64,000 nt of DNA from the NCBI GenBank assembly GCA_964628585.1, contig CAZVMH010000002.1, positions 97,751-161,750 of the forward strand, written 5' to 3'. The translations under genes and the position numbers were made by a program. The DNA is from an uncultured Candidatus Saccharibacteria bacterium (GTDB taxonomy: Bacteria; Patescibacteriota; UBA1384; XYA2-FULL-43-10; 1-14-0-10-43-13). Positions 521 to 62,311 of this stretch are shown here, piece after piece (position 1 is the stretch's first letter; each line of letters begins with the position of its first letter). The notes under the pieces were generated by a model. That model was not told the origin of the DNA. It made no database searches and saw only the letters and a list, made by a program, of their open reading frames with translations.

Positions 521-864
521 TACTCCTCCTTATCTTGCATCAGCTGAACCATTTCCATTTTATAGATAATCGATTCCTGTGCGTAAATTTGGTCCACGTT
601 AATATTTAGTCCTTTCATATATTGATCAAACTCCTCTTTGCTGGCTCTCTTTACAATTTCTTTTAGCTTTTTAGCCTCTTCGTCACTAAGTTGGTCATCG
701 ATTTTTGCAATAACTCTTGTTTCAATTGTTTCAATCATGCTCTTGTAGATCTGTTGTTTCTGTTCTTCTGGCATTTCTTTTGCTCCCATCAATTCCAGAA
801 TATCCTTATCAATAATTTCGTCTGCTGTATACTTATTTTTTCCTGTTTGTGCATTTGAGTCCAT
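520..864 (-). CDS. hypothetical small acidic protein (114 aa)
   Basis: ORF track. Its stop TAA overlaps the ATG of the downstream minus-strand ORF as TAATG. I recognise no domain. Confidence 0.5.
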   Translation of the reverse strand: MDSNAQTGKNKYTADEIIDKDILELMGAKEMPEEQKQQIYKSMIETIETRVIAKIDDQLSDEEAKKLKEIVKRASKEEFDQYMKGLNINVDQIYAQESIIYKMEMVQLMQDKEE

Positions 865-989
865 AAAATTCCTTTTTTAATCTAATTGTTTATATTTTAC
901 CATAAAATGATATTTGAATATATCAAAATGGTTTACTTAAAGGAATTTCTGCAATATAATGTAATAAATACTCAAATGGAGGGTTTTTT

Positions 990-2603: not shown

Positions 2604-2614
2604 AGGGTATCATA

Positions 2615-2700
2615 CCTCAGGGCAAGCCCTGCACTCTGTTCCGATTCATCGGAACATGTTGCCCCTACAAGTCGGGGCGGTATTTCACCTTTTTACGCAC
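2615..2700 (+). terminator. GC-rich multi-hairpin element followed by a T-run, downstream of the 990..2603 gene
   Basis: Three consecutive hairpins: cagggcaagccctg, ttccgattcatcggaa and cccctacaagtcgggg. They are followed by cacctttttacg, in an otherwise AT-rich context. Confidence 0.4.
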
Positions 2701-2730
2701 TGAATTCTTTACTAAGATATCTTGTAATAA

Positions 2731-5277
2731 ATGAATCAATACAGTTATTCAAATGGAGGATATAATAGCGGAGTCGAATCAGCCGGCCTTGCCTGGTGGA
2801 TTTTTGCGTTAATTAGTATTGCAATTGGAATTTTGGGCTATATCGCGTATTTAGCGATTCGTAAATCAATAATTCGCAAAAATCAAATTGCTCTGACTCG
2901 TGATTGGGTAATGTATAAAATCTCTGTACCAAAGGAGTTTCATGCCGAGGAAGATGATCAGCGTAAAAATTTTCAAGAAATGATGGCAGTGGTAGAACCA
3001 TTTTATGCTAACCTAAATTCAATTTTTACTGATTCAATTGAAAAAAAATGGACCGGACAGGATCACATCTCATTAGAAATTATTGCAAAAAACAATTTGA
3101 TATACTTTTATGTCGGTTGTCCTAGAAGGATCTCTGAAATTGTAGTAAAAAATCTGCATGCCCAGTATCCACACGCCGAAATTGTATTAGACGATCAATA
3201 TTCAATATTTCCAGATAAACCTCTCAAAATTGGAGCGGCTATTTTGGGGTTAAAAAAGCCATTTATGTTTCCAATAAAAACGTATCGACTTTTGGAAGAA
3301 GACCCGCTTAATGCAATAACTAATTCTCTTTCAAAATTTAAGGAAGATGAATCAGCTGGAATTCAATTTTTACTTCGGCCAGCTAACTCAATGTGGCGTA
3401 TTGCGGTAGAGAGAACTGCCTACAATCTTCAACATGGTAAAGTGAAAATTACTTCAAACTCTCCAGGGTTAAAGGCAATGGATACTATTTTTAATGTTCT
3501 GGGATCGGTGGCAAAAACTGCGACGACAGGAGACTCAGAATCGAAAAAAGACGGATTGATCGACGAGAATAAGTTAACTCCAATGCAGGAGAGTCAGGTT
3601 AAATTACTTGGCGAAAAAGCCTCAAAACTTGGTTTTGAGTGCCAAATTCGTGTTATGACAGTATCACCAACACAGGAAATGGCAGATCAAAATGTGAAAG
3701 AAATCTGCTCCGCTTTTAGCCAATTTAACGCTCCTGAGTCCAACGGATTGGTGAAAAAAAGAGCTAAAAAGAAAGCGGAAGAAATTGCGAACTACGTTTT
3801 TCGTATTTTTGGACCCGGTAAAAGATTAATTCTAAACACTGAAGAGCTTTGCACAATATACCATTTACCAAACAGATTTTTAGAGGCACCTTCCATTGCT
3901 TGGCTTTTATCTAGAAAATCGGCTCCGCCGTTTAATCTACCAACCGAGGGGACGATCATTGGAAATAGTGTATTTAGAGGAGAGACAAAACCTATACGCA
4001 TGGCCGAAAAGGATAGATTGAGACATATTTATATGATAGGTAAAACTGGCGTAGGTAAAACAGTTTTGTTTCAGAATATGATTGCCCAAGATATTGCTGA
4101 AGGCAGGGGAGTATGCTACTTAGATCCGAATGGAGATGCAGCTGAGTGGATTTTGCGTCATGTGCCGAAGGAACGGGCAGACGATGTAATATATTTTGAT
4201 CCTTCCGATATTGAGAGACCTTTTGGCCTAAACATGCTTGAGTGGAAAACACCAGAGCAAAGAGACTTTTTGGTTCAGGAAGCAATTCAGATGTTTTACA
4301 AACTATTTGATCCAAATCAAACCGGTATGGTTGGGCCACAGTTTGAACATTGGATGCGAAACGCTTCGCTTACTTTAATGATGCATCCAGATGGTGGCAC
4401 TATCATTGATATCCCAAGACTTTTCACAGATCCAGATTTTGAAAAAGATAGAACAAAATATGTGACAGATCCGGTTGTAAAATCGTTTTGGGAGAAACAG
4501 ATGGCAAAGACAGCTGACTTTCACAAGTCTGAAATGTTAAACTACTTCACCTCGAAATTTGGTCGTTTTATGACCAACGATATGATGAGAAACATTTTGG
4601 GTCAAACTAAATCTTCGTTTGATTTTCGCGAAGTAATGGATAATAAAAAAATACTAATTTGTAATCTTTCTAAAGGAAAGATAGGGGAGATTAATACTTT
4701 TCTTTTAGGTATGATCATTGTTTCAAAGTTGGCGATGGGAGCATTTTCGCGTCAGGACATTAACGAAGAAGAGAGAGTACCATTTTTCTTATATGTAGAC
4801 GAGTTTCAGAACTTTATTACCGATGTCTTTGCCACAATACTTTCGGAATCCAGAAAATATAAATTGGCTCTCAACATTACAAATCAATATATTGCTCAGC
4901 TAGACGACAAGGTTCGCGAAGCAGTTATTGGTAATGCTGGTACCTTACTTGCTTTTAGAATTGGAGCAGCTGATGCAGAGTTTTTAATAAAAGAGTTCGA
5001 TCCTGTTAAGGCAGATGATATGACTAGTATCGATAAATACAATTTCTACATTAAGATGTTGATAGATGGTTCTCCGACAAAACCGTTCAATGGTTTAGGT
5101 ATTTGGCCAGACAATCCTGAAGGTAATATTGAATTAGGAAACTCTATAAGGGAATTGTCTCGTTTAAAGTTTGGTCGTCCCCGTGAAATTGTGGGTGCTG
5201 AAATTTTAGAACGGTCCAAAGTCGATGTTATAGATTTGCCAGGAATTGGGGCGACCGACAACAATTCAAAATTATAG
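2731..5277 (+). CDS. VirD4/TraG/TraD-family type IV coupling protein-like P-loop ATPase with N-terminal transmembrane helix and long novel N-terminal domain
   Basis: N-terminal hydrophobic helix WWIFALISIAIGILGYIAYLAI. Walker A is HIYMIGKTGVGKT. A DPNGD motif follows, matching the T4CP DPKGE motif. Walker B is YVDEFQNF, compared with the TraG-family DEFxxLG. Confidence 0.65.
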   Translation: MNQYSYSNGGYNSGVESAGLAWWIFALISIAIGILGYIAYLAIRKSIIRKNQIALTRDWVMYKISVPKEFHAEEDDQRKNFQEMMAVVEPFYANLNSIFTDSIEKKWTGQDHISLEIIAKNNLIYFYVGCPRRISEIVVKNLHAQYPHAEIVLDDQYSIFPDKPLKIGAAILGLKKPFMFPIKTYRLLEEDPLNAITNSLSKFKEDESAGIQFLLRPANSMWRIAVERTAYNLQHGKVKITSNSPGLKAMDTIFNVLGSVAKTATTGDSESKKDGLIDENKLTPMQESQVKLLGEKASKLGFECQIRVMTVSPTQEMADQNVKEICSAFSQFNAPESNGLVKKRAKKKAEEIANYVFRIFGPGKRLILNTEELCTIYHLPNRFLEAPSIAWLLSRKSAPPFNLPTEGTIIGNSVFRGETKPIRMAEKDRLRHIYMIGKTGVGKTVLFQNMIAQDIAEGRGVCYLDPNGDAAEWILRHVPKERADDVIYFDPSDIERPFGLNMLEWKTPEQRDFLVQEAIQMFYKLFDPNQTGMVGPQFEHWMRNASLTLMMHPDGGTIIDIPRLFTDPDFEKDRTKYVTDPVVKSFWEKQMAKTADFHKSEMLNYFTSKFGRFMTNDMMRNILGQTKSSFDFREVMDNKKILICNLSKGKIGEINTFLLGMIIVSKLAMGAFSRQDINEEERVPFFLYVDEFQNFITDVFATILSESRKYKLALNITNQYIAQLDDKVREAVIGNAGTLLAFRIGAADAEFLIKEFDPVKADDMTSIDKYNFYIKMLIDGSPTKPFNGLGIWPDNPEGNIELGNSIRELSRLKFGRPREIVGAEILERSKVDVIDLPGIGATDNNSKL

Positions 5278-5281
5278 TATT

Positions 5282-5305
5282 CAGATAACAGAATACAGAT
5301 AACAG
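5282..5305 (+). repeat. tandem direct repeat CAGATAACAG-aata-CAGATAACAG
   Basis: Seen directly, immediately after the stop of the first T4CP-like gene and upstream of a promoter-like TTGACG-N17-TAAGAT at 5355..5383. Confidence 0.6.
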
Positions 5306-5411
5306 CCACTATCTATAGTAGCGCATATTTGTAATGGTTAATCTGTTTTTTTGTTGACGAATTAAAGATTATATGGTAAGATATTTTCAAGTTCATAATA
5401 AAAAAACAAAA

Positions 5412-5912
5412 ATGGCAGAAGAAAAAGAATTACAAATTATCAGGCAGCTTTTAGATAACGTTGAAAACCAGATTCGTCAGGTTAGAAGTATTTTATTTGC
5501 AAAAGAGATAAACAAAAAAGCTAAAGCGCTTGATCTTGAATCTCAGGGGGATATTATTGAAGGTATTTATAGTGGCGAGGAAATGGTAGACGCTGAAGGT
5601 AAGAGTCATCCTGTTCCTCCAAACTATGCTTCAAAGTCCAAACTAGTGCCTGGTGATGTTCTGAAATTGACGATTCTTCCAGACGGTTCATTTATTTATA
5701 AACAGATAGGGCCAGTTAAAAGAAAAAAAATAGTGGGAGTATTGGAAGATATCGGAAAAGGAAAATTTGTAGTAAATGCTGATAACAAAAAATATCGTGT
5801 TCTTTATGCTTCAGTAACCTATTTTAAAGCAGTAGATGGTGACAATTTAACAATTATTGTTCCAGAAAAAGGCGAGTCAGAGTGGGCTGCAATTGAAAAT
5901 ATTATTAAATAA
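5412..5912 (+). CDS. hypothetical protein (about 167 aa)
   Basis: ORF track 5373..5912. The track ATG overlaps the putative -10 hexamer, so the downstream ATG at 5412 (MAEEKELQ...) is preferred. I recognise no domain. Confidence 0.45.
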   Translation: MAEEKELQIIRQLLDNVENQIRQVRSILFAKEINKKAKALDLESQGDIIEGIYSGEEMVDAEGKSHPVPPNYASKSKLVPGDVLKLTILPDGSFIYKQIGPVKRKKIVGVLEDIGKGKFVVNADNKKYRVLYASVTYFKAVDGDNLTIIVPEKGESEWAAIENIIK

Positions 5913-5938
5913 TACAAATATAATTAAATAAGAAAACT

Positions 5939-6967
5939 ATGGCAATCAAAAACTTTAGTCCTTACAAAATTGTAAATGAGGCAAAACAGAATTTAAAACC
6001 AAATGAGCAAAGAGTCACTTCTGGTCGTTTTGGTATCGGTGAAGAAAGAAAGACGTTGTCGTCTATCGGGAAGGAACTAAAGCTTTCCAGAGAACGTGTC
6101 CGTCAGATAGAGAAAGATGCCCTTAAAAAACTTTCTGTTTTAATTATTGAAAAAGAAAATATTAATATAGAAAATATTCTGACTGCTTTTGCTGAAGTCG
6201 GAGGCGTTGCTAAGCATGATCAGATTGCCGAAAAGTTTTTGGAAAAGATACAACATAAAGATATTAATGAATTTAATTCTTTAAACTTAATTTTTACCCT
6301 AATCCCACAACTTAAAAAAATTGAGAAGACAAAAGAATTGGAAGCAAGTTGGATTTTTTCTACGATTGACAAAGAAGATATTACCAAAGTTGTTGAAGAT
6401 TGGGCCAAACATCTTTCAAAAACAAAAACACCTGAAAGTGTAGATATTTTGCGAAATGTTAATCCCGAAAATGGAAAATATGAGATCACTTTTCTCTCAG
6501 AACTACCATTGGTTAGTAAAAAAATTATTAAAACTGAAGATGGCAAAATTGGTTTATCTTCTTGGCCAGAAATTAATCCGCGTAATGTTCGTGATAAAAT
6601 CTATTTTATTCTAAAAAAAGAAGGTAAACCTACTCACTTTGATGACATTGCAAAGAAAATTAACGCTGAGAATTTAGACGCAAAAAAAGTTGTAAGGGCA
6701 ACTGTTCATAATGAACTAATTGCTGACAAAAGATTCGTCTTAGTTGGCCGTGGCATATATGCTTTAACTGAATGGGGTTATAAGCCCGGTACAGTTAAAG
6801 ACATGATAGTAGAAACTCTAAAAAAACATCCAAATGGTATTTCTGCTAACCAAATTGTTGACGAGGTTTTAAAACAGAGAACAGTTAAAAAAAATACAAT
6901 TTTAATTAATTTGCAGACTAAATCTGATTTTATAAAAGTAGGGGATAAGTACTCTCTTAAATCGTAA
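5939..6967 (+). CDS. DNA-binding protein with N-terminal sigma-70 region-4-like HTH and C-terminal HARE-HTH-like domain
   Basis: The N-terminus RFGIGEERKTLSSIGKELKLSRERVRQIEKDALKKL matches the sigma-70 region 4.2 pattern. The C-terminus KRFVLVGRGIYALTEWGY matches the HARE-HTH signature (RFvrvgrGxWgLxeW). Confidence 0.55.
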   Translation: MAIKNFSPYKIVNEAKQNLKPNEQRVTSGRFGIGEERKTLSSIGKELKLSRERVRQIEKDALKKLSVLIIEKENINIENILTAFAEVGGVAKHDQIAEKFLEKIQHKDINEFNSLNLIFTLIPQLKKIEKTKELEASWIFSTIDKEDITKVVEDWAKHLSKTKTPESVDILRNVNPENGKYEITFLSELPLVSKKIIKTEDGKIGLSSWPEINPRNVRDKIYFILKKEGKPTHFDDIAKKINAENLDAKKVVRATVHNELIADKRFVLVGRGIYALTEWGYKPGTVKDMIVETLKKHPNGISANQIVDEVLKQRTVKKNTILINLQTKSDFIKVGDKYSLKS

Positions 6968-49147: not shown

Positions 49148-49231
49148 TTGTCTCCTTGTTTAATAAATTTATCCAATCCAATTATATCAAAAATATTATT
49201 TCTTATTCAAATTCATGATACAATTATATGT

Positions 49232-49939
49232 ATGAAGGAATTTTTTAAGAAACATTTGTTTCAAATATTAGTTATAATTTTAGTTATTTTAACTGGTTTT
49301 TCAAATTATTTATTATATGATTATTATAAAAAAATAACCAATCTTCAAAACGAAAAAGAAGTTCTAAATCAAGAATATATAAAAACAAAACAAGATTTAG
49401 AAGCAGCAAATGAGAGCATTAAACAAAAAGATGCTCAGCTTGATGAAAAGAGCAAGGAAATAGAAAACTTAACACAATCTAAAGCAAATACAACTACTAC
49501 TGATACTATTGCACAAGCTCCTGCTACAACGACCAACCAACATACTTCATCCATATATGACAGAATTAGCGGTTCAGATGAATTTAAGAATAAAATAGTC
49601 AGTGCTCTGGATTTATTAAAAGCGCAAGACAATGAGCACTATAATATTGTATCTAGTCAAGTAGGAACAATTTACGAGTATGACAATTATGGTGGATATC
49701 AGGAGAAAAGAAATATCCACATCGGAGCAGATGCTAACCCTGCAATTACGGCCCCTATTATTGTTCACGAGGCTCAGCATGTTTACAATGTTTATGTAAA
49801 TAAGATCTATTCATACAATACTAAAGAACAAGAGTTGCCATGTTATGAGGCTGAACTGGTAGCAGCACAGAGAGTGGGTTCGCCAGCTTTTTTCATTACT
49901 TCAATTGAAAGTAGTATAAGTTATTGGCAATCGCAATAA
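49232..49939 (+). CDS. membrane-anchored coiled-coil protein with C-terminal HExxH (HEAQH) motif
   Basis: Start moved to the internal ATG at 49232 (MKEFFKKHLF...), because the track start abuts the divergent TM2 gene. IVHEAQHVYN. Confidence 0.5.
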   Translation: MKEFFKKHLFQILVIILVILTGFSNYLLYDYYKKITNLQNEKEVLNQEYIKTKQDLEAANESIKQKDAQLDEKSKEIENLTQSKANTTTTDTIAQAPATTTNQHTSSIYDRISGSDEFKNKIVSALDLLKAQDNEHYNIVSSQVGTIYEYDNYGGYQEKRNIHIGADANPAITAPIIVHEAQHVYNVYVNKIYSYNTKEQELPCYEAELVAAQRVGSPAFFITSIESSISYWQSQ

Positions 49940-49974
49940 ATAATTTTTGATTAATTTTTTGCATCCTTAAACAA

Positions 49975-50007
49975 CGAAAAGAGGCGACCCGTCAGGCGGG
50001 TCGCCTC
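49975..50007 (-). terminator. strong GC-rich intrinsic terminator for the GC-rich operon
   Basis: gaggcgacccg-tcag-cgggtcgcctc with a minus-strand U-run (plus-strand cgaaaa). Confidence 0.65.
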
Positions 50008-50044
50008 TTTGCTCTGACTTTTGGCCTCTCGGCCTTAAGTCTTG

Positions 50045-51250
50045 TTATCTTCGCCTTTTCAGGATGACACCGTGCTCCTGCCGGAGCTGGGTGTTCCAGG
50101 CGTTGCAGGCGATGTCGCCCGCACTGTTGACGGCGACTGCTTCGCCGTCTAGCCTCCATATGGGGAGCGTCTTACCATCCAACACCCAAGTGCCTAGGTC
50201 GGTAACTTTGGCGAGGTCAATCATCTTGCCGTTCTCCCAGAGAAACGGTCTCAGATAGAGGTTGTGGGTAGCGGCGTCATACGAGATCGCTGTTCCCACT
50301 GCCTGGCCACGGTTATTGATGCAGTTGACTCGGCTGTTCGTGTACCCTGGAAGGGTACCCATCTCGTCTACCTGCCTGACACCGTCTTCGTCCAGGTACC
50401 AGTACAGAGCATGCGATGTCCTTTCGAAGGAGTATGCGGTCTGGTAGTTTCCTACCGTCTGACCACAGTTGTTTACGTCCTTCGCCTCCGCTTTCGCGAA
50501 AGTTACGAGCGGCATAGGCAGGGGTTGTACTCCGCCCATGTTGCTCCATAGTGCCGGCGTCAGGTGATTCGACGAATTTCCGGCAACTAGGCCATTGTCA
50601 CTCATCCCCCTGACTCCGTAGAGGGGAAGGAGCTTGGCGTTGAACCTTCTGTCGGAAACGAATGTCTTCCAGTACCCGCCGACGTTCATTTCTCCGCAGA
50701 ATGCATTGCCAGTGATGCTGGTAACCCAGGTCGCCGCAGATCCCAGCGGCAGACCCTTAAGGGTGCTTGTCAGATCGACAATGCTTTCCTTGCTGATGTT
50801 GCCCAGGAACGCCCGCTGTACGGGCCATTGATATCCTGGCAGGGTCTGGAAACCTATTCCGCCGAACTGGCCGGAATTGTTGATGGCCGAACAGACAGCT
50901 GTTCCCTCAACCCGCTTCAACTTGCCGTCTTTCAACCAGCAGGCACCGGTTTTGTTGCCCTGCGCGTCGTAGGTCCAGCCAACCGATAGCCCAGCGTCGT
51001 TGATGTCCATGACGTTGGACCATCCTTCAGCCATCAACTCAACGACGTTGTACAGGGCCTTTCTTCGGTTCCCTCTCGTCATAACTGGTCCAGTGACCGT
51101 TTCGAACTGCTCATTGGGTGAGAGCATTGGAACCAGCTCACCCTGTTCGCGCAATGCCAGGTTTTCTGGACCGGCAATTGGCGACAAATCTGCCGCCTGC
51201 GCACCCAAGCACATGGCCAGTGCCATGATCATGACTAGCATCATCTTTAC
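50045..51250 (-). CDS. secreted repeat protein resembling HAF-family extracellular repeats
   Basis: Signal peptide MMLVMIMALAMCLGAQAA. Probable GTG or ATG start at 51250..51242 with an AGGAGG SD. Repeats AINNSGQ, MSDNGLVAG, INNRGQAVG and VNSAGDIA. GC-rich. Confidence 0.55.
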   Translation of the reverse strand, partial: VKMMLVMIMALAMCLGAQAADLSPIAGPENLALREQGELVPMLSPNEQFETVTGPVMTRGNRRKALYNVVELMAEGWSNVMDINDAGLSVGWTYDAQGNKTGACWLKDGKLKRVEGTAVCSAINNSGQFGGIGFQTLPGYQWPVQRAFLGNISKESIVDLTSTLKGLPLGSAATWVTSITGNAFCGEMNVGGYWKTFVSDRRFNAKLLPLYGVRGMSDNGLVAGNSSNHLTPALWSNMGGVQPLPMPLVTFAKAEAKDVNNCGQTVGNYQTAYSFERTSHALYWYLDEDGVRQVDEMGTLPGYTNSRVNCINNRGQAVGTAISYDAATHNLYLRPFLWENGKMIDLAKVTDLGTWVLDGKTLPIWRLDGEAVAVNSAGDIACNAWNTQLRQEHGVILKRRR

Positions 51251-51429
51251 CACGTTTACGCCTCCTGTGTTTGCCCACTTTGCAAAAGCTGGGCAATATG
51301 CCCATATTATACAACAAATTAATATAAAATGCAATAGCAACAGCCGAAAACAAGAATCTCTTATTTACAAATACAAAGGGGGCTCCGCGCGTTTCCACAC
51401 GGAGCCCCTGTTACTTCTCCTTCCTCTCC

Positions 51430-51945
51430 TCACGGTTCTACGGCGACGGCAAAGACGATTGTGCCGTCTACTACGGGTAGTGTAGTCAGATAGTTCGGCT
51501 GTAAGTAGTCGTCCTTGACAATCAGGGCGTAGATTACGCCGCTGTGCGCGGGCGCGATCCACGAATTGTCATTTCTGACGCCGATGCTGGTGCTATCCAG
51601 CGGTTGAACATAGTAGCCATTGGTATAGCTGTAGACAATGACCTTTCTGCCGGTCATTGAGCCAGCTATTTGGCCATAGGCAACCTGGTTTGTGCCTTCG
51701 TAGATGCTAGACGAGCTGTCCGGGTGGACAATGGAGTCAAACTGGACAACCTCGTTGATGCGTATAGCCGTTGCCGTTTCCGACCAGGGCGGAAACGATC
51801 TGGTTGGCGGAGCAGGCTTCATGTAGACAGCCACGCCGAGCCTATACCCGAACTGAAGACCCTTGTCGGTCCCGCCACCGCCACCACACCCTGCCATGAC
51901 GATTGCCGTTACGATACAGACGAGAACAAGCGCTATCGTTCTCAT
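51430..51945 (-). CDS. lipoprotein (lipobox VMAGC followed by Gly-rich linker)
   Basis: MRTIALVLVCIVTAIVMAGCGGGGG. GC-rich. A GC-rich terminator hairpin, ggggctccg...cggagcccc, lies at 51378..51410. Confidence 0.6.
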   Translation of the reverse strand: MRTIALVLVCIVTAIVMAGCGGGGGTDKGLQFGYRLGVAVYMKPAPPTRSFPPWSETATAIRINEVVQFDSIVHPDSSSSIYEGTNQVAYGQIAGSMTGRKVIVYSYTNGYYVQPLDSTSIGVRNDNSWIAPAHSGVIYALIVKDDYLQPNYLTTLPVVDGTIVFAVAVEP

Positions 51946-51960
51946 TTCCCTCTCTCCTTC

Positions 51961-53238
51961 CTACTGCACTGTGACATTCTGAATGTAGATCTCGGTGTTC
52001 TTGAAGATCTCTTTCGGTTCCTTCTTCACCAGATCTACGGTGAAGATCTGACAGCTAGTGTTGAGCAGAATCGTCTTGCTGTCGGGAGTCCAGCAGAGAT
52101 TCTGAACTGAGCCCCAGAACTTCGGAATTCCCAGCAAGCCGTATCCTCCCATTCCGGCTGGCGCGTCGAGTCCTCTTTCCTTGGCCTCAAGAGTATCGAC
52201 CAGTTTGACTGCCTTCTCATCTCCTACATTCCAGAGCCAGAGCCCGCCGATTGCCAAGAAGGCGTACTTCTTGCCGTCTGGTGAGAAGGCCGCATCGATA
52301 ATGTAGGGAATGTCGACGAACGGATCGCCGGCTTCCTTTGGCGCTTTCTTGTAGAGGCGCTTCTCGGTGAAGTCGTAGACATACAGCGTCGGGTCATCTA
52401 GCGACTTAACGAAGTTCCTCTCTTCTTCTGTGTCGAAGATGCCCATGACCTGCTTCGGCGAGAAGAATCCGAGTCTCTTTCCGTCCTTAGACCACTCGAG
52501 GAACCTTGTCATCTGCAGGTAGTTGATCTTCATGTTGATGACGTTTGTGGCAGGGCTCGGTAAAGGAGTCAGATGCTTTGACTTCCTCATGTCAATGACG
52601 CTCGCTTGGACGGGGACGGTCGCGACATAGTGACGATACAGCGAGGACTGCTTGTCTTCCGCCTTCGTGGCATTTTCGTCATAAATGACATACGCGAAGG
52701 CCAACTTTGTCGCGCTTGGCGACATTGTTGGGTTGAACAGAAGATGTCGCACCGGTGTATGGAGCAGACAAGTTCGCTTACCCGTGACCGGGTTTAGCCG
52801 CCAGATAGATGACTCGTTCTTGTCACCCATTGTGGCGTAGAGTATGTCCTTTCCATCCGGTGACCAGCTATAGTGCGTATCGAAGCTGGCCTCCATGTCT
52901 TCCTCGACGATACGGGGAATGCGTCGAATCTCCTTGCCGTCTTTCCCATAGACGCAGATAAAGTCCTTGACCAACCCCGTATCTGCAGTGACAAGCGAGA
53001 CCAAGATCCTGCCACTCTTGTCTGGTGCAGGATACACATGGCTGATGTTCGAGACCGAAATGTTCCAGTCCCGCAGATTCTTGCCGTCAAGGCCCATGGA
53101 GAAGATATCGCACTTGGTCGGCTTCTCCTTGTCCTTGCTTGCAGTGAAGTACACCGTGCTTGCAGGTACTACTGCGCCCTGTGCTACTAGAGCGAGAGCC
53201 AGAAGCACTACTACCAACAGAAAACATAGCCGGTTCAT
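51961..53238 (-). CDS. secreted TolB-like beta-propeller (PD40/WD40-like repeats) protein
   Basis: Start taken at the internal ATG at 53238 (MNRLCFLLVVV...), with an AGGAGG SD 7 nt upstream. Repeats YSWSPDGKDILY, AFSPDGKKYAF and CWTPDSKTIL. Confidence 0.6.
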   Translation of the reverse strand: MNRLCFLLVVVLLALALVAQGAVVPASTVYFTASKDKEKPTKCDIFSMGLDGKNLRDWNISVSNISHVYPAPDKSGRILVSLVTADTGLVKDFICVYGKDGKEIRRIPRIVEEDMEASFDTHYSWSPDGKDILYATMGDKNESSIWRLNPVTGKRTCLLHTPVRHLLFNPTMSPSATKLAFAYVIYDENATKAEDKQSSLYRHYVATVPVQASVIDMRKSKHLTPLPSPATNVINMKINYLQMTRFLEWSKDGKRLGFFSPKQVMGIFDTEEERNFVKSLDDPTLYVYDFTEKRLYKKAPKEAGDPFVDIPYIIDAAFSPDGKKYAFLAIGGLWLWNVGDEKAVKLVDTLEAKERGLDAPAGMGGYGLLGIPKFWGSVQNLCWTPDSKTILLNTSCQIFTVDLVKKEPKEIFKNTEIYIQNVTVQ

Positions 53239-53422
53239 TCGAATCCTCCTGTTCCCAAGGCTGAATTTTGGTGCAACCATCGGCGCAAGTATACAATTTT
53301 TACTCAATTTATTCAATAGAGTAAGCAATATTAAAAAAAGACTCCTACAGTTACAGCAGATGAGAGTCTAGTTTGTTGATATTATATTACAATTTGTCGA
53401 TTACGCGTTCAAAAACAGGAAA

Positions 53423-54130
53423 CTATTTCTGTGATGACGGCTTAAATTTTGCTAAACATTTCGTCTGGTCAAATGGTCCCTGTCCAATCTGTCTCACGGC
53501 CAACCCCTGGTCATCGTTTATATCTTGAATTAGACCCTCGTTCCCATTTATTGTTTCAAGATCAGCCACCAAAACGACTGCGGCCTCCCTCTGGCTTTTT
53601 GGGATCTCAGCAGTTAATCCTCGCATTACTTCATGAAAGTCGCTCGTCCAGTAGTACTCTGGTTTTGGTTCCTCAGAGGGCTGCGTAATTCTAAAGAATA
53701 GGACTTTGCTCGGATTGATCTTTGCTTCTGCTAGAGCGTTAATATTTATTTTATAGCCCTCTTCCTCTCGCCTCACTCTACCATTATGGTGCATAGTTTC
53801 TGGAACTGCCATCTCTTTGCCAAAAAAACCGGTATCGTCTCCGCTCCATCTTTTTGTTCTTGCCTTATAAAAGTAGTCGCCAAAAGCCATAGAATGGCCG
53901 ATGTATTCTGCCATTCGCGCGTCTGATTCTTTAATATCGGCTGGCAAGGAATTGTATAGGTCTGGGTCTTTAAAATAATCTAAAACCATCGGATTTAAAG
54001 TGATCCCATGCTCGGTCAAAATATTACAAGCGTTAGCTACTTTGGCCTCAACTTTCTCATCGCGATAAACTGGTGGTAACTCAACTTGATCAATTAAATC
54101 AATTTTTTTAGGGTCGCCAATATCATTCAT
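53423..54130 (-). CDS. hypothetical protein (235 aa), last gene of a five-gene operon
   Basis: ORF track. Start ATGA overlaps the upstream gene. I recognise no domain. Confidence 0.5.
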   Translation of the reverse strand: MNDIGDPKKIDLIDQVELPPVYRDEKVEAKVANACNILTEHGITLNPMVLDYFKDPDLYNSLPADIKESDARMAEYIGHSMAFGDYFYKARTKRWSGDDTGFFGKEMAVPETMHHNGRVRREEEGYKININALAEAKINPSKVLFFRITQPSEEPKPEYYWTSDFHEVMRGLTAEIPKSQREAAVVLVADLETINGNEGLIQDINDDQGLAVRQIGQGPFDQTKCLAKFKPSSQK

Positions 54131-56202: not shown

Positions 56203-56231
56203 TTTACAATCTAGTAAAAACCCACTATAAT
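56203..56231 (+). promoter_or_regulatory. consensus-like sigma-70 promoter TTTACA-N17-TATAAT on the plus strand, antisense to the flanking genes
   Basis: TTTACA at 56203..56208 and TATAAT at 56226..56231. Confidence 0.55.
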
Positions 56232-56237
56232 TGACTC

Positions 56238-56445
56238 AAACACCGAGCAAGAGGCGCGCCTGATGGTTAAAGCTGCTTTATGCAACGACTGACTATCTTA
56301 AACGTACAGGTGTGGTTGCTAATTTTCCGAAATTTAATCGCGAGGTCTTAAGCCCACAAGCTTAAATGAAGTATGGCCTGACCAGACGAGTACTTCTCGG
56401 TTAACAATCCTATCAATGACCGCGGCTGCGGTCATTTTTAGTTAT
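56238..56445 (+). ncRNA. candidate small RNA or small-peptide transcript (about 200 nt), bounded by promoter and intrinsic terminator
   Basis: Promoter as above. Terminator tgaccgc-ggct-gcggtca plus ttttt at 56417..56445. There is no ORF of 60 aa or more, only ORFs of 9, 11 and 22 aa. A 5' accgag and 3' ctcggt could form a closing stem. Confidence 0.35.
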
Positions 56446-56449
56446 ACAT

Positions 56450-58867
56450 CTATTTCTTGCTCCGTGAAAATAATTGTGCCAATCGAGATTTTTGTTTTTG
56501 TTGCATATACAAATGCTTCTGAAATTCAATAAAAGTGGCACGAATTATCTCAGACTCTCCAAGTACTTTTTCTGCATCAGCCACTGACTGATACTTCAGA
56601 TTTATCAATTTTGGTAGCTTATCCTCACTAAGTTCTTCAACCCCTTCGCCAATATATTTTGACAGAACAAACAGCAAAAACTCTTTTTGTTTATCGTCAA
56701 GTCCATTCAAAATTGCACTTTTTGCTTTAGCTACTCGTTCCTCTCTCGATATAGGTTTCAAAGCGAATGAAATATATGCCAGCACGTCGAACAAGTCAGA
56801 ATTTTCAGCGTCAATTAGTTTTTGCAATGACCTCAGTTTTTCTAGGTCATACCCCATTTCAGAAATATTATACAAAAACGCATCTCTAGTTTTCGGATTA
56901 GACCAAATTTTTCTTAATTCTTCTTCTGACTTAAATAAACTTGGTAGATCGCCATACATATTTTGAATAAATTCTTCGGAAGATATTGGTTTGCCGTCAG
57001 CACTCCAAAAAGATGTAGAGACCATGTGCTGGATTTCTCTTTCTTTTCCATCTCGTAGTTTTATCTTTACCTTTTTCTTTGGTTTGTCCTCGCATTCGCA
57101 AGGATCCATTCCACATACAGGGCAAATTTTAGGTGGTTTTTCGCATTGGCACGGGTCCTGCCCACAAACGGGGCATTCTTTTGGTGGTTTTTCGCATATG
57201 CATGGATTTTCACCACATTTTGAACAAACTTCATTTATCGGCTCGCCATCCCATTCTGGATCGGAAAAATGATGATAAGCGTCAACAAAATCAATAATTG
57301 TAAAATATTCCTTGCCATCAAAAAGCCTTGTTCCCCGGCCAATGATTTGCTTAAACTCTATCATCGAATTCACAGGTCGCATTAGAACGATATTCCGAAT
57401 ATTCCGCGCATCAACGCCTGTTGAAAGCTTTTGTGATGTGGTTAATATGGTTGGAATCGTTTTTTCATTGTCTTGAAAATCTCGGAGGAATTGATCCCCG
57501 CGAGCGCCATCGTTGGCAGTAACACGAACACAGTAATTTGGCTCTTTGCTATCTTTCATTTGATTGACCAATTCTCGAACGGCGGCGGCGTGGTCCTGAG
57601 TGGCGCAAAAAATAATTGTCTTTTCGTTTTGATTTATTTCGTCGAGAACGATCCTGACTCTTTTTGCTTCTCGCTCTTTTATTTCAATAATCCGATTGAA
57701 ATCCGGTTCGGTATAAATTTTGCCTTCTTCGACCTCGCCCTCGATAAGTTCATCGTCAGAAGTGTAGACATAATCGTCGAGAGTTGTTTTGATCCGTTTT
57801 ACTTTAAACGGTGTCAGAAAACCGTCGTTTATTCCCTGTTTCAATGAATAAATATAAACTGGCTCGCCAAAGTATTTATATGTATCAATGTTATCTTTTC
57901 TCTTTGGAGTGGCAGTCAAACCAAGCTGAACGGCAGGTGAAAAATATTCGAGAATGCCTCGCCAATTGCCTTCGTCGTTTGCACCGCCTCTATGGCATTC
58001 GTCGATAATAATAAAGTCAAAAAAGTCTTTTGGATATTCACCAAAATAAGGAGTATTACCAGTGCCACTCATAAATGTCTGAAAAATTGTAAAAAATACA
58101 CTACCGTTTGTCGGCACAGCACCTTTTTTGCGAATATCGGCTGGGTTAATACGGACTAAAGCGTCTTCGGAAAACGCCGAGAACGAGTTGAAAGCTTGAT
58201 TAGCTAAAATATTTCTATCAGCCAAAAATAATATCCTTGGTCTACGCCCACCATCACGATTTAGATTCCATCGTGTATGAAAAAGCTTCCAAGCGATTTG
58301 AAAAGCGATAAATGTTTTGCCCGTACCAGTTGCAAGAGTTAGCAAAATTCGATCTTTATTCTCAGCTACGGCATCAAGAGCATTGTTTACGGCATTTTCT
58401 TGGTAATATCGAGGTGTTTTAGTGCCACCCATATCTTCAAAAGGAATTGAGGCAAATTTTTCTTTCCAGTCATTGTGCGAGGAAAAAGTTAAATTCCATA
58501 ATTCATCAGGAGTTGGAAATTTATCAATCGTTTTTTCCTTACCGGATTTCATCGATATTTCATAAATTTCTTTGCCGTTGGTTGAATAGGTATAATCAAT
58601 TTCTAATTTCTTGGCATATGCTTTGGCTTGAGCCACTCCTTCGCCAACACCGAGCTCGTCTTGTTTGGCTTCAATCACCGCTAGTTTTTGGTTCTTATAA
58701 ACCAAAATATAGTCGGCAATTTCTTTTTTGCCACGTACACCACCAGCCTGAATTTTGCCTTCGGTAATATGAAATTCACGAAGAATCTTTGATCCCTCGA
58801 CTTCACCCCAACCACATTCCTTTAGTTTCGGGTCAATATATTCAGCTCTTGTTTCTGCTTCGTTCAT
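56450..58867 (-). CDS. hsdR: type I restriction enzyme R subunit HsdR with C-terminal triplicated Cys-repeat insertion
   Basis: Typical HsdR N-terminus MNEAETRAEYIDPKL. Walker A LATGTGKT. DECH box IIIDECHRG. The insertion is three KPPKxCPVCGxDPCxCE repeats. Confidence 0.9.
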   Translation of the reverse strand: MNEAETRAEYIDPKLKECGWGEVEGSKILREFHITEGKIQAGGVRGKKEIADYILVYKNQKLAVIEAKQDELGVGEGVAQAKAYAKKLEIDYTYSTNGKEIYEISMKSGKEKTIDKFPTPDELWNLTFSSHNDWKEKFASIPFEDMGGTKTPRYYQENAVNNALDAVAENKDRILLTLATGTGKTFIAFQIAWKLFHTRWNLNRDGGRRPRILFLADRNILANQAFNSFSAFSEDALVRINPADIRKKGAVPTNGSVFFTIFQTFMSGTGNTPYFGEYPKDFFDFIIIDECHRGGANDEGNWRGILEYFSPAVQLGLTATPKRKDNIDTYKYFGEPVYIYSLKQGINDGFLTPFKVKRIKTTLDDYVYTSDDELIEGEVEEGKIYTEPDFNRIIEIKEREAKRVRIVLDEINQNEKTIIFCATQDHAAAVRELVNQMKDSKEPNYCVRVTANDGARGDQFLRDFQDNEKTIPTILTTSQKLSTGVDARNIRNIVLMRPVNSMIEFKQIIGRGTRLFDGKEYFTIIDFVDAYHHFSDPEWDGEPINEVCSKCGENPCICEKPPKECPVCGQDPCQCEKPPKICPVCGMDPCECEDKPKKKVKIKLRDGKEREIQHMVSTSFWSADGKPISSEEFIQNMYGDLPSLFKSEEELRKIWSNPKTRDAFLYNISEMGYDLEKLRSLQKLIDAENSDLFDVLAYISFALKPISREERVAKAKSAILNGLDDKQKEFLLFVLSKYIGEGVEELSEDKLPKLINLKYQSVADAEKVLGESEIIRATFIEFQKHLYMQQKQKSRLAQLFSRSKK
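57078..57230 (-). repeat. three imperfect 51-bp tandem repeats encoding the Cys-rich repeats inside hsdR
   Basis: The core ggtggtttttcgca recurs with a 51-bp period. Confidence 0.6.
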
Positions 58868-60000
58868 AGCTCCCCCTCAAATGCTTTTTTCAATATTGAT
58901 TTTTTCAGCTCGTCCAAATCCGCCAATTTTTGTTTATAAATCGCTTCCAGTTTTTTAGTCTGCTCCGACAACGCATCAAGCTTTTTGACGATGGATTTTT
59001 GTTCAGCCAACCCTGGTAATTTTATCTTAAAATCCCTCAAATACCCCAAACCAACAAACTTTTGTGTTGTTCCTTTGGCTTCGTTCAGCATCTTGTCAAT
59101 AACAAATTTGGAATCTAGGAAATATTTGAGAAAATAACTGTCATTTTCTTTTGAAATTTTAAATAAAGCAACATTTTTTATAGCAAAATTAGGCTCAACT
59201 TTTATAACAACAGGGTTACCGATTGTCCCAATCATGGCAAACAAAATATCGCCTTTGTCTACTTTACTTCGGTTATTTATTTTGTCATAGTCTTTTTCAG
59301 AAATATATTTGATATTTTTGTAATCAAGTTCATCTCTTTTAAGATTTTTTGAAGTAATCAGGGCAAAACCGTTTTGATGATATTGTGGCGAATCATGTGT
59401 GCCGTCGCGAACATCGTACGCATCTCCCAATCTTTTCTCCTTCCAATCATCTCCTGGGCTTGCAAAAACACTTTGCAAATATGATTCAAAAAGCTCTTTA
59501 GAATTTTGGAGATTTTTTTGGGTATTTTCTTTCGCATTAGCAATTTTCTCAAAAACCTCATCCAAAATCTTCACAATCCGCTTTTGTTCCTCAATCGGCG
59601 GAACTGGAACTTCAAGATCTTCAAAATGTCTTCTTCTTAATGATTTTGCAGTTGCACCAACCGCAACTCTTTCAAAATATTTATGTTCAAGTATTAAATA
59701 ATACTCTACAAATTTAATATTTACATTTTCGTCAAAATCCAATAACGCGTAAGCTCTTTGATGTAAATTGAATTTTCCAAAGTAATACCTTGGGAAGAAT
59801 TCTGCGCCTTCGCCAGGTATTATTAGTGCTTCACCTTCAAATAGAAAATGGTTACTTCTTTTGATTATTTTTGATCTATCAAAAAAGGCATACTTTCCAT
59901 CTACAACAGCATCAACTGTGTTTGAACTCCCAGTTGTAATTTTACAAACCTCACCAAGTTTTTTTATTTGCCAATTATTAGGCAAGTTTTTATTACTCAT
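58864..60000 (-). CDS. hsdS: type I restriction-modification specificity subunit HsdS (two target-recognition domains)
   Basis: N-terminus LPNNWQIKKLGEVCKIT. Duplicated TRD architecture. 4-bp overlap with hsdR. Confidence 0.85.
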   Translation of the reverse strand: MSNKNLPNNWQIKKLGEVCKITTGSSNTVDAVVDGKYAFFDRSKIIKRSNHFLFEGEALIIPGEGAEFFPRYYFGKFNLHQRAYALLDFDENVNIKFVEYYLILEHKYFERVAVGATAKSLRRRHFEDLEVPVPPIEEQKRIVKILDEVFEKIANAKENTQKNLQNSKELFESYLQSVFASPGDDWKEKRLGDAYDVRDGTHDSPQYHQNGFALITSKNLKRDELDYKNIKYISEKDYDKINNRSKVDKGDILFAMIGTIGNPVVIKVEPNFAIKNVALFKISKENDSYFLKYFLDSKFVIDKMLNEAKGTTQKFVGLGYLRDFKIKLPGLAEQKSIVKKLDALSEQTKKLEAIYKQKLADLDELKKSILKKAFEGEL

Positions 60001-62311
60001 TATTACCTACTAATTTTTCAATCTTCTTCCATAATTCCTTGAACTGAGATTCTTTAATCAGGATCACAAATTCTTCAAGTAATTTTGAAGTACTTTCAGG
60101 AGGTAACGGATCAGTACTAGCCTCTGGATTACCATGACTGTAATAATTGATCGCAGAGTAAAATGCCTTATACTTATCCACATCAAAATTTGTGAAGATC
60201 GTTCTAATAGACTCTGCTTCAAATTGATGAAGTCCATAGAAATGTCTTACTGTTTCAAAGAATCTTCTCATATCATTTCCGATATTTCCTTCATATTTAT
60301 CATCCACGGAGGCTTCGTAAATTCTTTGAAGTGCTGTCTCGAATTCCGAAATCAATTTTCTATTTGATATAATTTTTATTGTTTTTTCATTTAAGATGAA
60401 ATAAAGTGCAGATTCTTTAAAAATATTACCTCTCAACATATTGAAAAATTGTGTATTATGTGTTAATACTATTTTTTGGATTTTAGGCTTTTCTTCACCC
60501 TTCCATAGTTCAGTATATATTTTATTTTCATATTCCTCTAATAAATTACAAATTCCAAAGAAGTTTCCGTAACTAGTACTACAAATTGGATCATCAATCA
60601 TAAATACAGAATTATTATATCTCTCTGGGCTATCAAATTTTTGTATACTTGATGCTAAAAAATAACAGAAACCGATCATTGTTTTCTCGCCTTCACTGAT
60701 CTTTCTTGTTTCCTTCGAAATATCCACATCATTTAATCGTAAGGATATGGTTCCATTTAATATTTCGGCTTTATACTTATGCAGATCTAGATAATTATGT
60801 AAAAATTTATTAAACAAATTAACAATATTTGAAAGAGCGTCTGTTTTAGGCAGCTTATCTTTTTCAATTTTTAACTCAGATTTATTATCTTCGATAATCT
60901 TACCCAATTTATTAACTTCATCAAAATCACTCTTATTATCCATATAAAAATTATAAAGGTGCTTCTGTCCAATCATTTTTCTTAGTTCTGTTTCTCTATG
61001 ACTGCTATTATCGATCTTTTTATTAACATCAAAAATTAAATCATTGTTCTTTTTGATCTTTACATTTAATTCCTTAATTTCTTTCGAAGTATCAATGTTT
61101 AAAATAGGGCATTCTTCGGGATTTTGTTTTTTTGAGTCAAGTAGCTTCTCTAAGGATTCGATTTTTTCAATCATAGATTCCGTAGTTAAATCTTCCCATT
61201 TGTTTTTCAAAGAAAATATTTCAATATATTCCTCGGTTTTAGACTGCAAGTTATTATTAACTTTTTGTAAATTAGTTTTTAATAATTGTAAATCTTTTTT
61301 AAATTGATCTACTTTTGACTCAAATATTCCTTTTTCGTCTTTAAAATAGTTTTTGTAGCTATTAAATAATTCTTTTACAGAATTATCTATCGCTCTGTTA
61401 CATAGTAAGCACTTATTAACAGCTTCGCTTTTTTCAATCCCCTCTTTTAATAGCGACTGCTGTATCCAATTTGTAGTAATATTGGCAATATTACTTTCCG
61501 TTTCTTCATCAAATTTACTGAATTTCTTTTCTTCCTTCAAAATGGTGGAAATATCGTTCAGTTCGTTTATTTGATTGACAGATATCTCAGTTAATTGAGA
61601 AACCATTTTGTCGGATATTCTAAATCCTTTAACTTTTTTAAACTGATCCTCACATGAACTAAATTCGTTTTTATTTATGGGTGGTGTAACTTCAAACTCT
61701 TCACTCATGATATTAATCAATGAAAACTCCTGCCATATACTTAGATCTTTTCCCTTATAATCATTTTTTTTAAGTTTTGTTTTTGCAGTAGTTAGGGTTT
61801 CCGAAAGAGTCTCGCATATCTTTTCTCTATTTTTAGTTTTCTGCTCAATATCTAATTCGAGCGATTGGATTTTAATATTTTCTTTTCCTACTGGAATTAA
61901 TATAGTCCCGTCGATATCCTTTTCAGAAAAATTAACACACTTGATATTTTCTTCGATATAATCAGAGTTAAAAATACACAGATCACCTAGAATCTTTTGA
62001 TTTTCATCTAAAGAATAATTTGATTGATTAATAATTTTTCCGTCAACACAAATAGAAAAATCTGATTTACTACTGGTTTGTTCTGCTTCATGAGATAATA
62101 ACTCATCAATATTATTTTCTGAACTAGAGATATATTTAAATAATCGACTGAGGTTTGTTTTTCCTGATCCATTTGGTGCATAAATAATTGTTTTATGATA
62201 ATCTTCAAAATCGCCATCTTTATTCTTTTTTGAATGCAACAAAACTCCTTCTCCGTTGAAATCCAGAAAATTTCGTATATATTTAATTGATTGAATTTGT
62301 TCTAATTTCAC
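59993..62311 (-). CDS. RloC/PrrC-like protein: split ABC/SMC-type ATPase head, long coiled coil with CxxC zinc hook, C-terminal HEPN-like (Rx6H) putative anticodon nuclease domain
   Basis: Walker A YAPNGSGKT. Walker B and D-loop VFMIDDP and H-loop VLTHN follow the coiled coil. CLLC sits mid coiled coil. C-terminal MRRFFETVRH. It lies between hsdM and hsdS with 4-bp and 8-bp overlaps. Confidence 0.55.
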   Translation of the reverse strand: MKLEQIQSIKYIRNFLDFNGEGVLLHSKKNKDGDFEDYHKTIIYAPNGSGKTNLSRLFKYISSSENNIDELLSHEAEQTSSKSDFSICVDGKIINQSNYSLDENQKILGDLCIFNSDYIEENIKCVNFSEKDIDGTILIPVGKENIKIQSLELDIEQKTKNREKICETLSETLTTAKTKLKKNDYKGKDLSIWQEFSLINIMSEEFEVTPPINKNEFSSCEDQFKKVKGFRISDKMVSQLTEISVNQINELNDISTILKEEKKFSKFDEETESNIANITTNWIQQSLLKEGIEKSEAVNKCLLCNRAIDNSVKELFNSYKNYFKDEKGIFESKVDQFKKDLQLLKTNLQKVNNNLQSKTEEYIEIFSLKNKWEDLTTESMIEKIESLEKLLDSKKQNPEECPILNIDTSKEIKELNVKIKKNNDLIFDVNKKIDNSSHRETELRKMIGQKHLYNFYMDNKSDFDEVNKLGKIIEDNKSELKIEKDKLPKTDALSNIVNLFNKFLHNYLDLHKYKAEILNGTISLRLNDVDISKETRKISEGEKTMIGFCYFLASSIQKFDSPERYNNSVFMIDDPICSTSYGNFFGICNLLEEYENKIYTELWKGEEKPKIQKIVLTHNTQFFNMLRGNIFKESALYFILNEKTIKIISNRKLISEFETALQRIYEASVDDKYEGNIGNDMRRFFETVRHFYGLHQFEAESIRTIFTNFDVDKYKAFYSAINYYSHGNPEASTDPLPPESTSKLLEEFVILIKESQFKELWKKIEKLVGNNE

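Follow-up and report, generated by a model that had tools for sequence, protein, structure and literature searches.

A candidate orphan small-RNA gene with its own promoter and terminator between type I restriction genes and a gene for a Cas4-like nuclease

Introduction

Does the gap between two genes that both read in the opposite direction hold a small-RNA gene of its own, and what might such an RNA do there? We addressed this question for a 284-nt non-coding gap (56166−56449, 41% G+C) with hsdR on one side and a Cas4-like nuclease gene on the other, lying in a 64-kb stretch of DNA (64,000 nt, hereafter the window, whose numbering is used throughout). The host is a Patescibacteria-type genome of 851 kb in 18 contigs (97% complete, 38% G+C). 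A first-pass annotation had proposed that a promoter and an intrinsic terminator delimit a transcript of about 200 nt in this gap, and that it might be a regulatory sRNA, an RNA antitoxin or a small-peptide gene in a defence island. Here we follow the two signals, the RNA body between them and its possible relatives, and weigh what the unit may be for.

Genomic setting

Both genes flanking the gap are encoded on the minus strand, as had been noted. The left neighbour, divergent from the promoter described below, is a PD-(D/E)XK/Cas4-like nuclease gene (55410−56165, minus strand) coding for 251 aa (PF12705, E 7e-16); its product scored under the cut-offs of the Cas4 models. The right neighbour, convergent with the unit, is hsdR (56450−58867, minus strand), whose product carries ResIII, EcoEI_R_C and HSDR_N domains. 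It closes a type I restriction operon that also comprises hsdS (58864−60000), an AAA_13 ATPase gene (59993−62311; PADLOC PDC-S06, E 2e-67; C-terminal part of PrrC, E 1e-14) and hsdM (62308−63822), all on the minus strand. In window coordinates, this strand carries every ORF-called gene from 50045 to 69418, the closest plus-strand genes being located at 49148−49939 and 69484−69795; the candidate is the sole plus-strand unit within this ~20-kb run of minus-strand genes.

The stretch was contained in five sequencing runs from two studies, all of DNA and all from wastewater. A contig of a ~95% identical strain spans 56309−56560 with 12 differences, and another contig carries an 88%-identical Cas4-like gene followed by 169 nt without likeness to this gap.

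Promoter and terminator

The near-perfect TTTACA-N17-TATAAT reported by the first-pass annotation was confirmed on the plus strand at 56203−56231 as a sigma-70-type promoter with 11 of 12 consensus matches, and it was the top promoter-like site between 55000 and 58000. Weaker promoter-like sites (≥9/12) were not enriched in this 3-kb region, with 4 observed vs 7.7 expected. The predicted transcription start is the A run at 56238−56240. A −10-like TATAGT on the minus strand (56224−56229) overlaps the plus-strand TATAAT and reaches 8/12 when combined with TTGCTC at a 15-nt spacer; judging from the symmetry of the promoter, it may act as a weak partner promoter that serves the Cas4-like gene. Within the gap, 8/12 was the highest promoter score on the minus strand. 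The divergent start sites of the TATAAT and TATAGT elements, both of them predictions, would be ~21 bp apart.

The overlap of the two hexamers speaks for a reading in which the RNA is a functionless by-product of a strong promoter and the terminator alone is selected, to halt antisense transcription into hsdR. The plus-strand signal would then be either the stronger arm of a symmetric promoter serving the Cas4-like gene or a recent promoter in horizontally shuffled DNA. In line with this, bacterial promoters are often bidirectional owing to −10 symmetry, notably in horizontally acquired DNA, where they are enriched, as stated in a preprint (10.1101/2020.01.31.928960). However, the minus-strand partner is poor in both its match and its 15-nt spacer, and the predicted ~21-bp spacing falls outside the favoured values, at least those named in the preprint (18 bp as the commonest, and also 7, 10, 12, 23 and 29; 10.1101/2020.01.31.928960). 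The genome is moreover streamlined (91% ORF coverage) and nevertheless retains 160 nt between promoter and terminator, which argues against a mere by-product.

The intrinsic terminator held up equally well. At 56415−56439 of the plus strand, a 9-bp stem (5 G-C) with a GGCT loop (AATGACCGC-GGCT-GCGGTCATT, 56415−56436) is followed by the T-rich TTTAGTTATA, the T run occupying 56435−56439, so that the description of this site as a strong terminator was borne out. On the minus strand, the sequence after the stem reads GATAGGATTG (GATAGG) and contains no T run, indicating that the hairpin would terminate transcription of the plus strand only. Because of this directionality, and because the nearest plus-strand genes are far away, the terminator would serve only a transcript born in the gap. 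Between the end of its T run and the hsdR stop codon, which starts at 56450, lie 10 nt. For hsdR itself, the minus strand offers a single terminator-like site, and a weak one (7 pairs, 3 G-C, 56359−56338); since the gap contains no minus-strand promoter above 8/12 either, it appeared plausible that hsdR transcription reads through into the Cas4-like genes. Taken together, promoter and terminator frame a predicted transcript of ~200 nt (56238−56440, plus strand; ends placed according to the two signals) in antisense orientation to both neighbours, as the first-pass annotation had it.

Genome-wide use of both signals

The host genome contained 79 promoter sites of ≥11/12, 16 of them perfect, compared to 27−32 in five first-order Markov genomes. 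As many as 46 of the 79 fall in the non-ORF 9% of the genome (91% ORF coverage, taken from a crude ORF map), where ~3 were expected from simulated sequence of intergenic composition (405 sites per 20 Mb); the intergenic DNA of the host is ~15-fold enriched in sites of this quality. A case in point is the RNase P RNA gene (C1:54135−54470), which has a 12/12 promoter whose end lies 12 nt ahead of it. Terminators, defined by a stem of ≥7 bp with ≥4 G-C and a T run, and with nested forms of one hairpin counted separately, numbered 210 vs 40−41 in the simulated genomes, and 141 of the 210 were intergenic. The host thus clearly uses both types of signal.

The combination of the two is far rarer by chance. 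A promoter of ≥11/12 with a terminator (stem ≥8 bp) 40−330 nt further on occurred once in 20 Mb of simulated intergenic-type sequence, so that chance would give ~0.007 such pairs over the 148.6 kb of intergenic strands in total. With promoters of ≥10/12 admitted, the genome had five promoter-terminator pairs enclosing no ORF of ≥70 aa, the candidate included. The other four were a gene for a 63-aa protein (C1:66748−67062) with a strong AGGGAGG ribosome-binding site and a long frame, a G+C-rich and very stable 369-nt RNA, and two short units of 63−111 nt. The genome-wide enrichment of the signals and the ~0.007 pairs expected led us to take the unit as real. The orphan character of the sequence, documented below, would fit a chance juxtaposition of unused signals from which nothing is transcribed; given the joint expectation per genome and the strong intergenic enrichment of both signals, we regard such a coincidence as very improbable.

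RNA body and small open reading frames

The full predicted transcript has a minimum free energy (MFE) of −59.1 kcal/mol (z −2.19), an advantage that stems from the terminator. Its core (56240−56405) reached a z of only −1.07, with 27 of 200 shuffles folding equally well, and the opposite strand of the core folded alike (z −1.16). A fold no better than that of shuffles or of the opposite strand counts against the reading that we favour below. The MFE fold is multibranched with a three-way junction and includes the predicted hairpins AGG-CGCG-CCU and UUAAGC-CCACAA-GCUUAA. The closing helix suggested earlier, between ACCGAG (56242−56247) and CTCGGT (56396−56401) of the plus strand, was indeed present in the MFE fold, but neither statistics nor comparison lent it support.

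The unit had been described as free of ORFs above 22 aa; it contains no credible ORF, although the longest frame is 23 aa by the count of our tool. This ORF (MQRLTILNVQVWLLIFRNLIARS, 56280−56351, plus strand) is partly hydrophobic and positively charged, with a 13-residue hydrophobic run and three arginines, and has no Shine-Dalgarno motif upstream. Such a motif does precede a 9-codon mini-ORF, MVKAALCND (56263−56292, plus strand), where AAGAGG (56249−56254) is followed by an 8-nt spacer and ATG (56263−56265). By our estimate, a start codon 5−10 nt past GAGG arises by chance in roughly one case in four. Across the genome, Shine-Dalgarno motifs precede 38% of longest-ORF starts vs 10% background, the starts being uncurated, which makes the motif only moderately informative. 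A further plus-strand frame within the unit has 17 aa and a GTG start.

These frames raise the prospect of a small-peptide gene, possibly of the type I toxin kind, in which the RNA would be the mRNA for the 9-aa or the 23-aa ORF and the closing helix would keep it inactive. The well-spaced AAGAGG and ATG, the hydrophobic run with its three arginines and the 5′/3′ helix within the MFE fold are all consistent with it. Several observations weigh against it: no Shine-Dalgarno motif precedes the 23-aa ORF, whose hydrophobic run falls short of the length needed for a membrane helix, nine codons behind a Shine-Dalgarno motif are about what chance provides, the top minus-strand promoters score 8/12, leaving no better antisense promoter for an antitoxin RNA, and there are no homologues for a comparison at codon level. 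The genuine 63-aa unit of the same genome shows, with its strong AGGGAGG and long frame, what a small-protein gene looks like here. We consider a peptide-coding function unlikely.

The gap is also poor in repeats. No tandem repeats (score ≥30) were found in 55900−56700 and no direct repeats in 56100−56520, the genome contains no second copy of the gap, and the gap shares no 11-mers with the DNA at the other end of the restriction cassette. An imperfect 12-nt inverted repeat (56241−56252 / 56455−56466) brackets the unit. We dropped a reading of it as a MITE, since ~0.2 such repeat pairs are estimated to occur by chance in 421 nt and no other copy was present.

Homologue searches

A blastn search of the candidate against 60 relatives returned no homologue, and none of the 22 other genomes of the family had one, whereas this search did recover the control, RNase P RNA, from 17 of these 22. 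A single-sequence covariance model likewise detected no homologue in 43 genomes of the order at E ≤ 1. Extending blastn to 161 genomes of the class yielded only chance matches of ~17−33 nt in 16 genomes (E 0.016−0.09), and 400 sampled genomes of the phylum gave no homologue but two matches of ~20−36 nt (E 0.004−0.006), both covering the 3′ linker and the terminator. The phage collection contained no match and the plasmid collection only six matches of ~29 nt (E 0.07−0.9). In the JGI metagenome contigs, a single 20-mer from the 5′ part of the RNA hit eight times without revealing a real homologue: all eight matches lie in contigs of 59−69% G+C and consist of the seed only, two of them extending by ≤4 adjoining bases. 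As judged from these comparisons, the candidate RNA is probably a young, lineage-restricted orphan.

Targets were searched for within the host. No complementarity of more than 15 nt to the candidate RNA was present elsewhere in the genome, and 10 of 16 shuffled RNAs did as well as or better than the best duplex predicted with a translation start region (−36.8 kcal/mol).

Known RNA families

The covariance scan that had been suggested as a check (Rfam 15) produced no match at gathering score across the 64-kb window. At E ≤ 10 in 54000−59000, one match touched the unit, a partial S4-Bacteroidia leader at 56399−56428 that remained below threshold (17.2 bits vs a gathering score of 34.7, E 4.3). 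A tRNA/tmRNA scan of the window was negative. RNase P RNA and tmRNA were both detected in the host genome, and neither 6S RNA (RF00013) nor SRP RNA (RF00169, RF01854) had a match at E ≤ 1 in this 97%-complete genome.

These two vacancies suggest that the unit might be a divergent 6S or SRP RNA missed by the Rfam models, and its ~200-nt size and closing helix loosely fit 6S RNA. A 6S RNA forms a rod-like fold with a central bubble and is conserved across relatives. We rejected this identity for the candidate, which has no RF00013 match, folds into a three-way junction (z −1.07) and has no homologue in any of the 22 family genomes. The SRP RNA is marked by its domain IV hairpin, which has a GNRA tetraloop as well as conserved loops. 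This identity was rejected as well, as no RF00169 or RF01854 match was obtained and the predicted loops, CGCG and CCACAA, are not of the GNRA type; a domain IV motif (≤2 mismatches allowed) had no match within the gap and did not locate an SRP RNA elsewhere in the genome. Scanning the gap at E ≤ 10 also returned no 6S or SRP match, the multibranched fold is not significant, and RNase P RNA occurs in 17 of 22 family genomes as opposed to none for the candidate. A misrecognized housekeeping RNA is therefore the least probable of the identities considered, and an exceedingly improbable one.

Type III toxin-antitoxin RNAs of the ToxI type consist of tandem direct repeats of ~34−36 nt beside an endoribonuclease toxin gene. 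A ToxI-like identity was rejected because 55900−56700 contains no tandem repeats at a score of ≥30 and 56100−56520 no direct ones.

Association with hsdR and Cas4-like genes

If the unit served the restriction system, it should accompany hsdR, and conservation of the region beside hsdR homologues had been set in advance as a test of the first-pass proposal. This prediction failed: the region was absent from the best 80 hsdR loci, where blastn of the gap gave matches of ≤22 nt only (E ≥ 0.46) and nhmmer nothing at E ≤ 10. Among the 72 loci with ≥300 nt downstream of hsdR, a single one (L049) had an analogous convergent promoter-terminator pair, with a promoter of 11/12 and a weak terminator; in this count hsdR was taken as the longest plus-strand ORF per locus, which is possibly wrong in two loci. 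The hsdR homologues, 62−77% identical, occur in many phyla and in archaea, indicating that the cassette is horizontally mobile.

The Cas4-like side was no more informative. Homologues of this gene were found in 8 of the 22 other family genomes, and a second copy in the host genome (84% identical) has no upstream gap whatever. A covariance model run with filters off against nine Cas4-like loci found no match (best 9.9 bits, E 0.52), and local alignment against the upstream regions of seven Cas4-like homologues showed no extended similarity; 3 of 14 comparisons just exceeded the maximum of 30 shuffles (27−29 vs 23−27), owing to matches of ~14 nt. The Cas4-like genes form a widespread family of solo genes, not part of a defence operon, and their neighbours differ between loci.

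One relative in the family, G013, has the two genes close to each other: an hsdR gene without the EcoEI_R_C region lies ~1.25 kb upstream of the Cas4-like gene, with a DUF3800 gene between them. No such RNA was found there between hsdR and the Cas4-like gene, an observation that counts against the role favoured below. A different promoter of 11/12, 19 nt from the ATG, faces away from the Cas4-like gene of G013, as does the promoter studied here, which again fits the by-product reading. Since the gap is not tied to its neighbours and G013 has the arrangement with DUF3800, the hsdR/Cas4-like junction reads as an old neighbourhood with a fast-changing filling.

What, then, became of the proposed regulatory unit of a defence island? 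The self-contained plus-strand unit stood, and its link to the island did not. A trans-acting sRNA or RNA antitoxin would have a suggestive place here, between hsdR and a nuclease gene, next to a type I restriction operon that includes a PDC-S06/PrrC-like AAA_13 ATPase, and the architecture of the unit is that typical of stand-alone sRNAs. Against this stand its absence beside the 80 hsdR homologues and beside the Cas4-like homologues, the single analogous unit in 72 loci, the absence of ToxI-type tandem repeats, and the target searches, in which genome complementarity never exceeded 15 nt and shuffled RNAs matched or beat the best duplex in 10 of 16 cases. We regard a dedicated defence regulator as quite unlikely.

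Favoured role and alternatives

We favour the view that the gap holds a real, self-contained unit coding for a young local RNA, most likely with an insulating or antisense role between the two operons, and give this reading a probability of roughly 0.45. According to it, the near-consensus sigma-70 promoter would fire on the plus strand and produce an RNA of ~200 nt, which the one-directional terminator would end 10 nt ahead of the stop codon of hsdR. Such an RNA would act locally and not via a conserved structure. Transcription of the unit would meet hsdR read-through head-on, and the RNA would be perfectly complementary to the hsdR read-through RNA or to a long leader of the Cas4-like gene, so that transcriptional interference and antisense pairing together might uncouple the restriction operon from the Cas4-like gene set. 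The terminator would at the same time spare hsdR antisense RNA from the strong promoter. We infer both the transcription of the unit and its role, the latter from the arrangement of the genes: a lone plus-strand unit is placed right between two operons, hsdR lacks a convincing terminator, and the minus-strand promoters of the gap reach 8/12 at most.

Promoter and terminator look selected, and the RNA body looks unconstrained. That the searches gave no homologue in which selection on the RNA might show counts against the favoured reading. We also note that 160 nt of spacer would be unnecessary for insulation, a point that counts against the insulator role.

An RNA body with neither conservation nor a significant fold nor a target is also what a functionless by-product of a strong promoter would leave behind. 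As the poor minus-strand partner, the spacing of the start sites and the retained 160 nt weigh against it, we hold this by-product reading, the main alternative, to be a serious possibility, if a rather doubtful one.

A bolder version would cast the unit as a regulated switch working by antisense RNA, or as an RNA module of a toxin-like kind, that controls the restriction and PrrC-like anticodon-nuclease island. As a switch, the 9-codon leader ORF and the terminator would form an attenuator, read-through of which would send antisense RNA across hsdR, and this conditional transcript would lower restriction (restriction alleviation). As a toxin, the 23-aa cationic hydrophobic peptide would act in the manner of a type I toxin. 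Either version, if true, would give this phylum a first described case of RNA-based control over defence genes. Both are speculative, and we rate them as decidedly unlikely.

To return to the favoured reading of a young local RNA, the unit, if transcribed, would add to a very short list of small-RNA candidates from Patescibacteria, which are ultra-small and uncultured; the literature on small or noncoding RNA in this group contained nothing pertinent among the matches listed, which is no claim of absence from print. The unit would also show what a very young RNA gene can look like, with strong signals around an unconserved body at a junction made by horizontal shuffling. As such, it would bear on the origin of new sRNA genes and on the means by which antisense transcription into adjacent operons is halted in compact genomes. 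Being an orphan, it holds no general lesson for restriction systems or for Cas4-like nucleases, and its interest is limited, since comparison teaches nothing further.

Comparison with known systems

Symmetric bidirectional promoters share with this locus the overlap of −10-like hexamers on opposite strands (TATAAT and TATAGT), a position upstream of a divergent gene and a setting in shuffled or horizontally acquired DNA. Unlike in these promoters, the predicted starts are ~21 bp and not the favoured 18 bp apart, and the arm that is stronger by far faces away from the gene and has a terminator of its own.

Type I toxin-antitoxin loci combine the mRNA of a hydrophobic peptide, locked by long-distance 5′-3′ pairing, with an antisense RNA. 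The candidate resembles them in its ~200-nt transcript, the 5′/3′ helix of its MFE fold and the hydrophobic, cationic 23-aa ORF, and differs from them in having an ORF without a Shine-Dalgarno motif, a hydrophobic run of only 13 residues, no antisense promoter above 8/12 and no homologues.

Antisense RNAs have been reported within restriction-modification genes, and the oop RNA of phage lambda is a short convergent antisense RNA that ends at or in the 3′ end of the neighbouring gene. As in oop-type RNAs, a strong promoter and a terminator would here give a short RNA converging on the 3′ end of a gene. In contrast to these RNAs, the candidate would end 10 nt before the hsdR stop codon and have no coding overlap, and could for this reason pair only with the 3′ UTR or with a read-through transcript.

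Promoter and terminator searches in model bacteria have uncovered stand-alone intergenic sRNA genes, which have a sigma-70 promoter, a length of 50−300 nt, a Rho-independent terminator and no ORF. The candidate differs from them in its host, an uncultured Patescibacteria-type genome, in its lack of conservation even within the family and in having no predicted target above shuffles. It shares with them what defines such genes at the level of sequence, namely a promoter of its own, a U-tailed Rho-independent terminator on the same strand, a predicted length of ~200 nt and no credible ORF in between. We conclude that the gap contains a credible candidate for an orphan small-RNA gene, whose sequence is without known relatives.

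Surroundings of the unit and comparison of hsdR loci

The whole candidate small RNA unit is enclosed by a 12-nt inverted repeat, with arms at 56241–56252 and 56455–56466 that are complementary at 11 of 12 positions, the second arm falling within the last codons of hsdR; by our estimate, chance alone would yield about 0.2 such pairs over the 421 nt searched. The unit was found only once in the source genome. Among 72 hsdR homologue loci, the sole analogous convergent unit was detected at about 5430–5576 of locus L049, from an Omnitrophota MAG (JBAZKL010000001.1), where a TTAACA-18-TATAAT promoter (11/12 matches to the sigma-70 hexamers) is paired with a weak 6-bp terminator just past hsdR. This unit and the window showed no sequence similarity. 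Positions 49500–53500 of the window form a block of 48–57% G+C, compared to 38% in the genome; this block codes for a HAF-repeat protein (50045–51340) and a beta-propeller protein (51961–53328).

The source genome also contains a second Cas4-like gene on the minus strand of contig C6 (10070–10819), which shares 84% identity with the copy in the window, is packed tightly, and has different neighbours. In a family relative (G013, positions 1–6000 of its contig C2), the order was hsdR, a 350-nt gap, a DUF3800 gene, and a Cas4-like gene; the contig begins inside this hsdR gene, which lacked the EcoEI_R_C domain. The 97-nt gap preceding the start of the Cas4-like gene of the relative holds overlapping back-to-back promoter-like sites, and the site on the strand directed away from that gene scored 11/12.

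Other promoter-plus-terminator units and housekeeping RNAs

Elsewhere in the source genome, a 369-nt G+C-rich, RNA-like stretch with a minimum free energy of −158.8 kcal/mol lies between a 10/12 promoter and a 12-bp terminator on the plus strand of contig C3 (103957–104349), and this locus had no Rfam match at E ≤ 1. Two short plus-strand units without an ORF, one of 111 nt (C1:71885–72020) and one of ~65 nt (C5:67648–67738), also returned no Rfam match. The C5 unit is on the strand opposite to its two neighbours, and its hairpin is a bidirectional terminator, since it bears an A tract in addition to its T tract. An unlisted gene for a 63-aa protein (MKKLQDRKG...) was identified on the minus strand at C1:66748–67062, where a strong ribosome-binding site (AGGGAGG) is combined with a promoter scoring 11/12 and a terminator of 12 bp.

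At 2.7 kb before the window, ARAGORN called a “tRNA-???” with a two-base anticodon (C2:95001–95091) just downstream from a perfect 12/12 promoter (C2:94885–94913); the called sequence had no Rfam match at E ≤ 1. In the 97%-complete genome, the Rfam models of 6S RNA (RF00013) and of the small and large bacterial SRP RNAs (RF00169, RF01854) gave no match at E ≤ 1, while tmRNA and the RNA of RNase P were both detected. An SRP domain IV motif had no convincing site in the genome.

ATPase gene inside the restriction operon

Between hsdM and hsdS, the restriction operon contains a minus-strand gene for a 772-aa AAA_13 ATPase (59993–62311), which matched PDC-S06, a candidate system in PADLOC (E = 2e-67). 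The low G+C content of this gene (27–31% versus 38% for the genome) suggests that an anticodon-nuclease-like insert in the operon was acquired separately; the C-terminal 300 residues of the ATPase matched PrrC (E = 1e-14).
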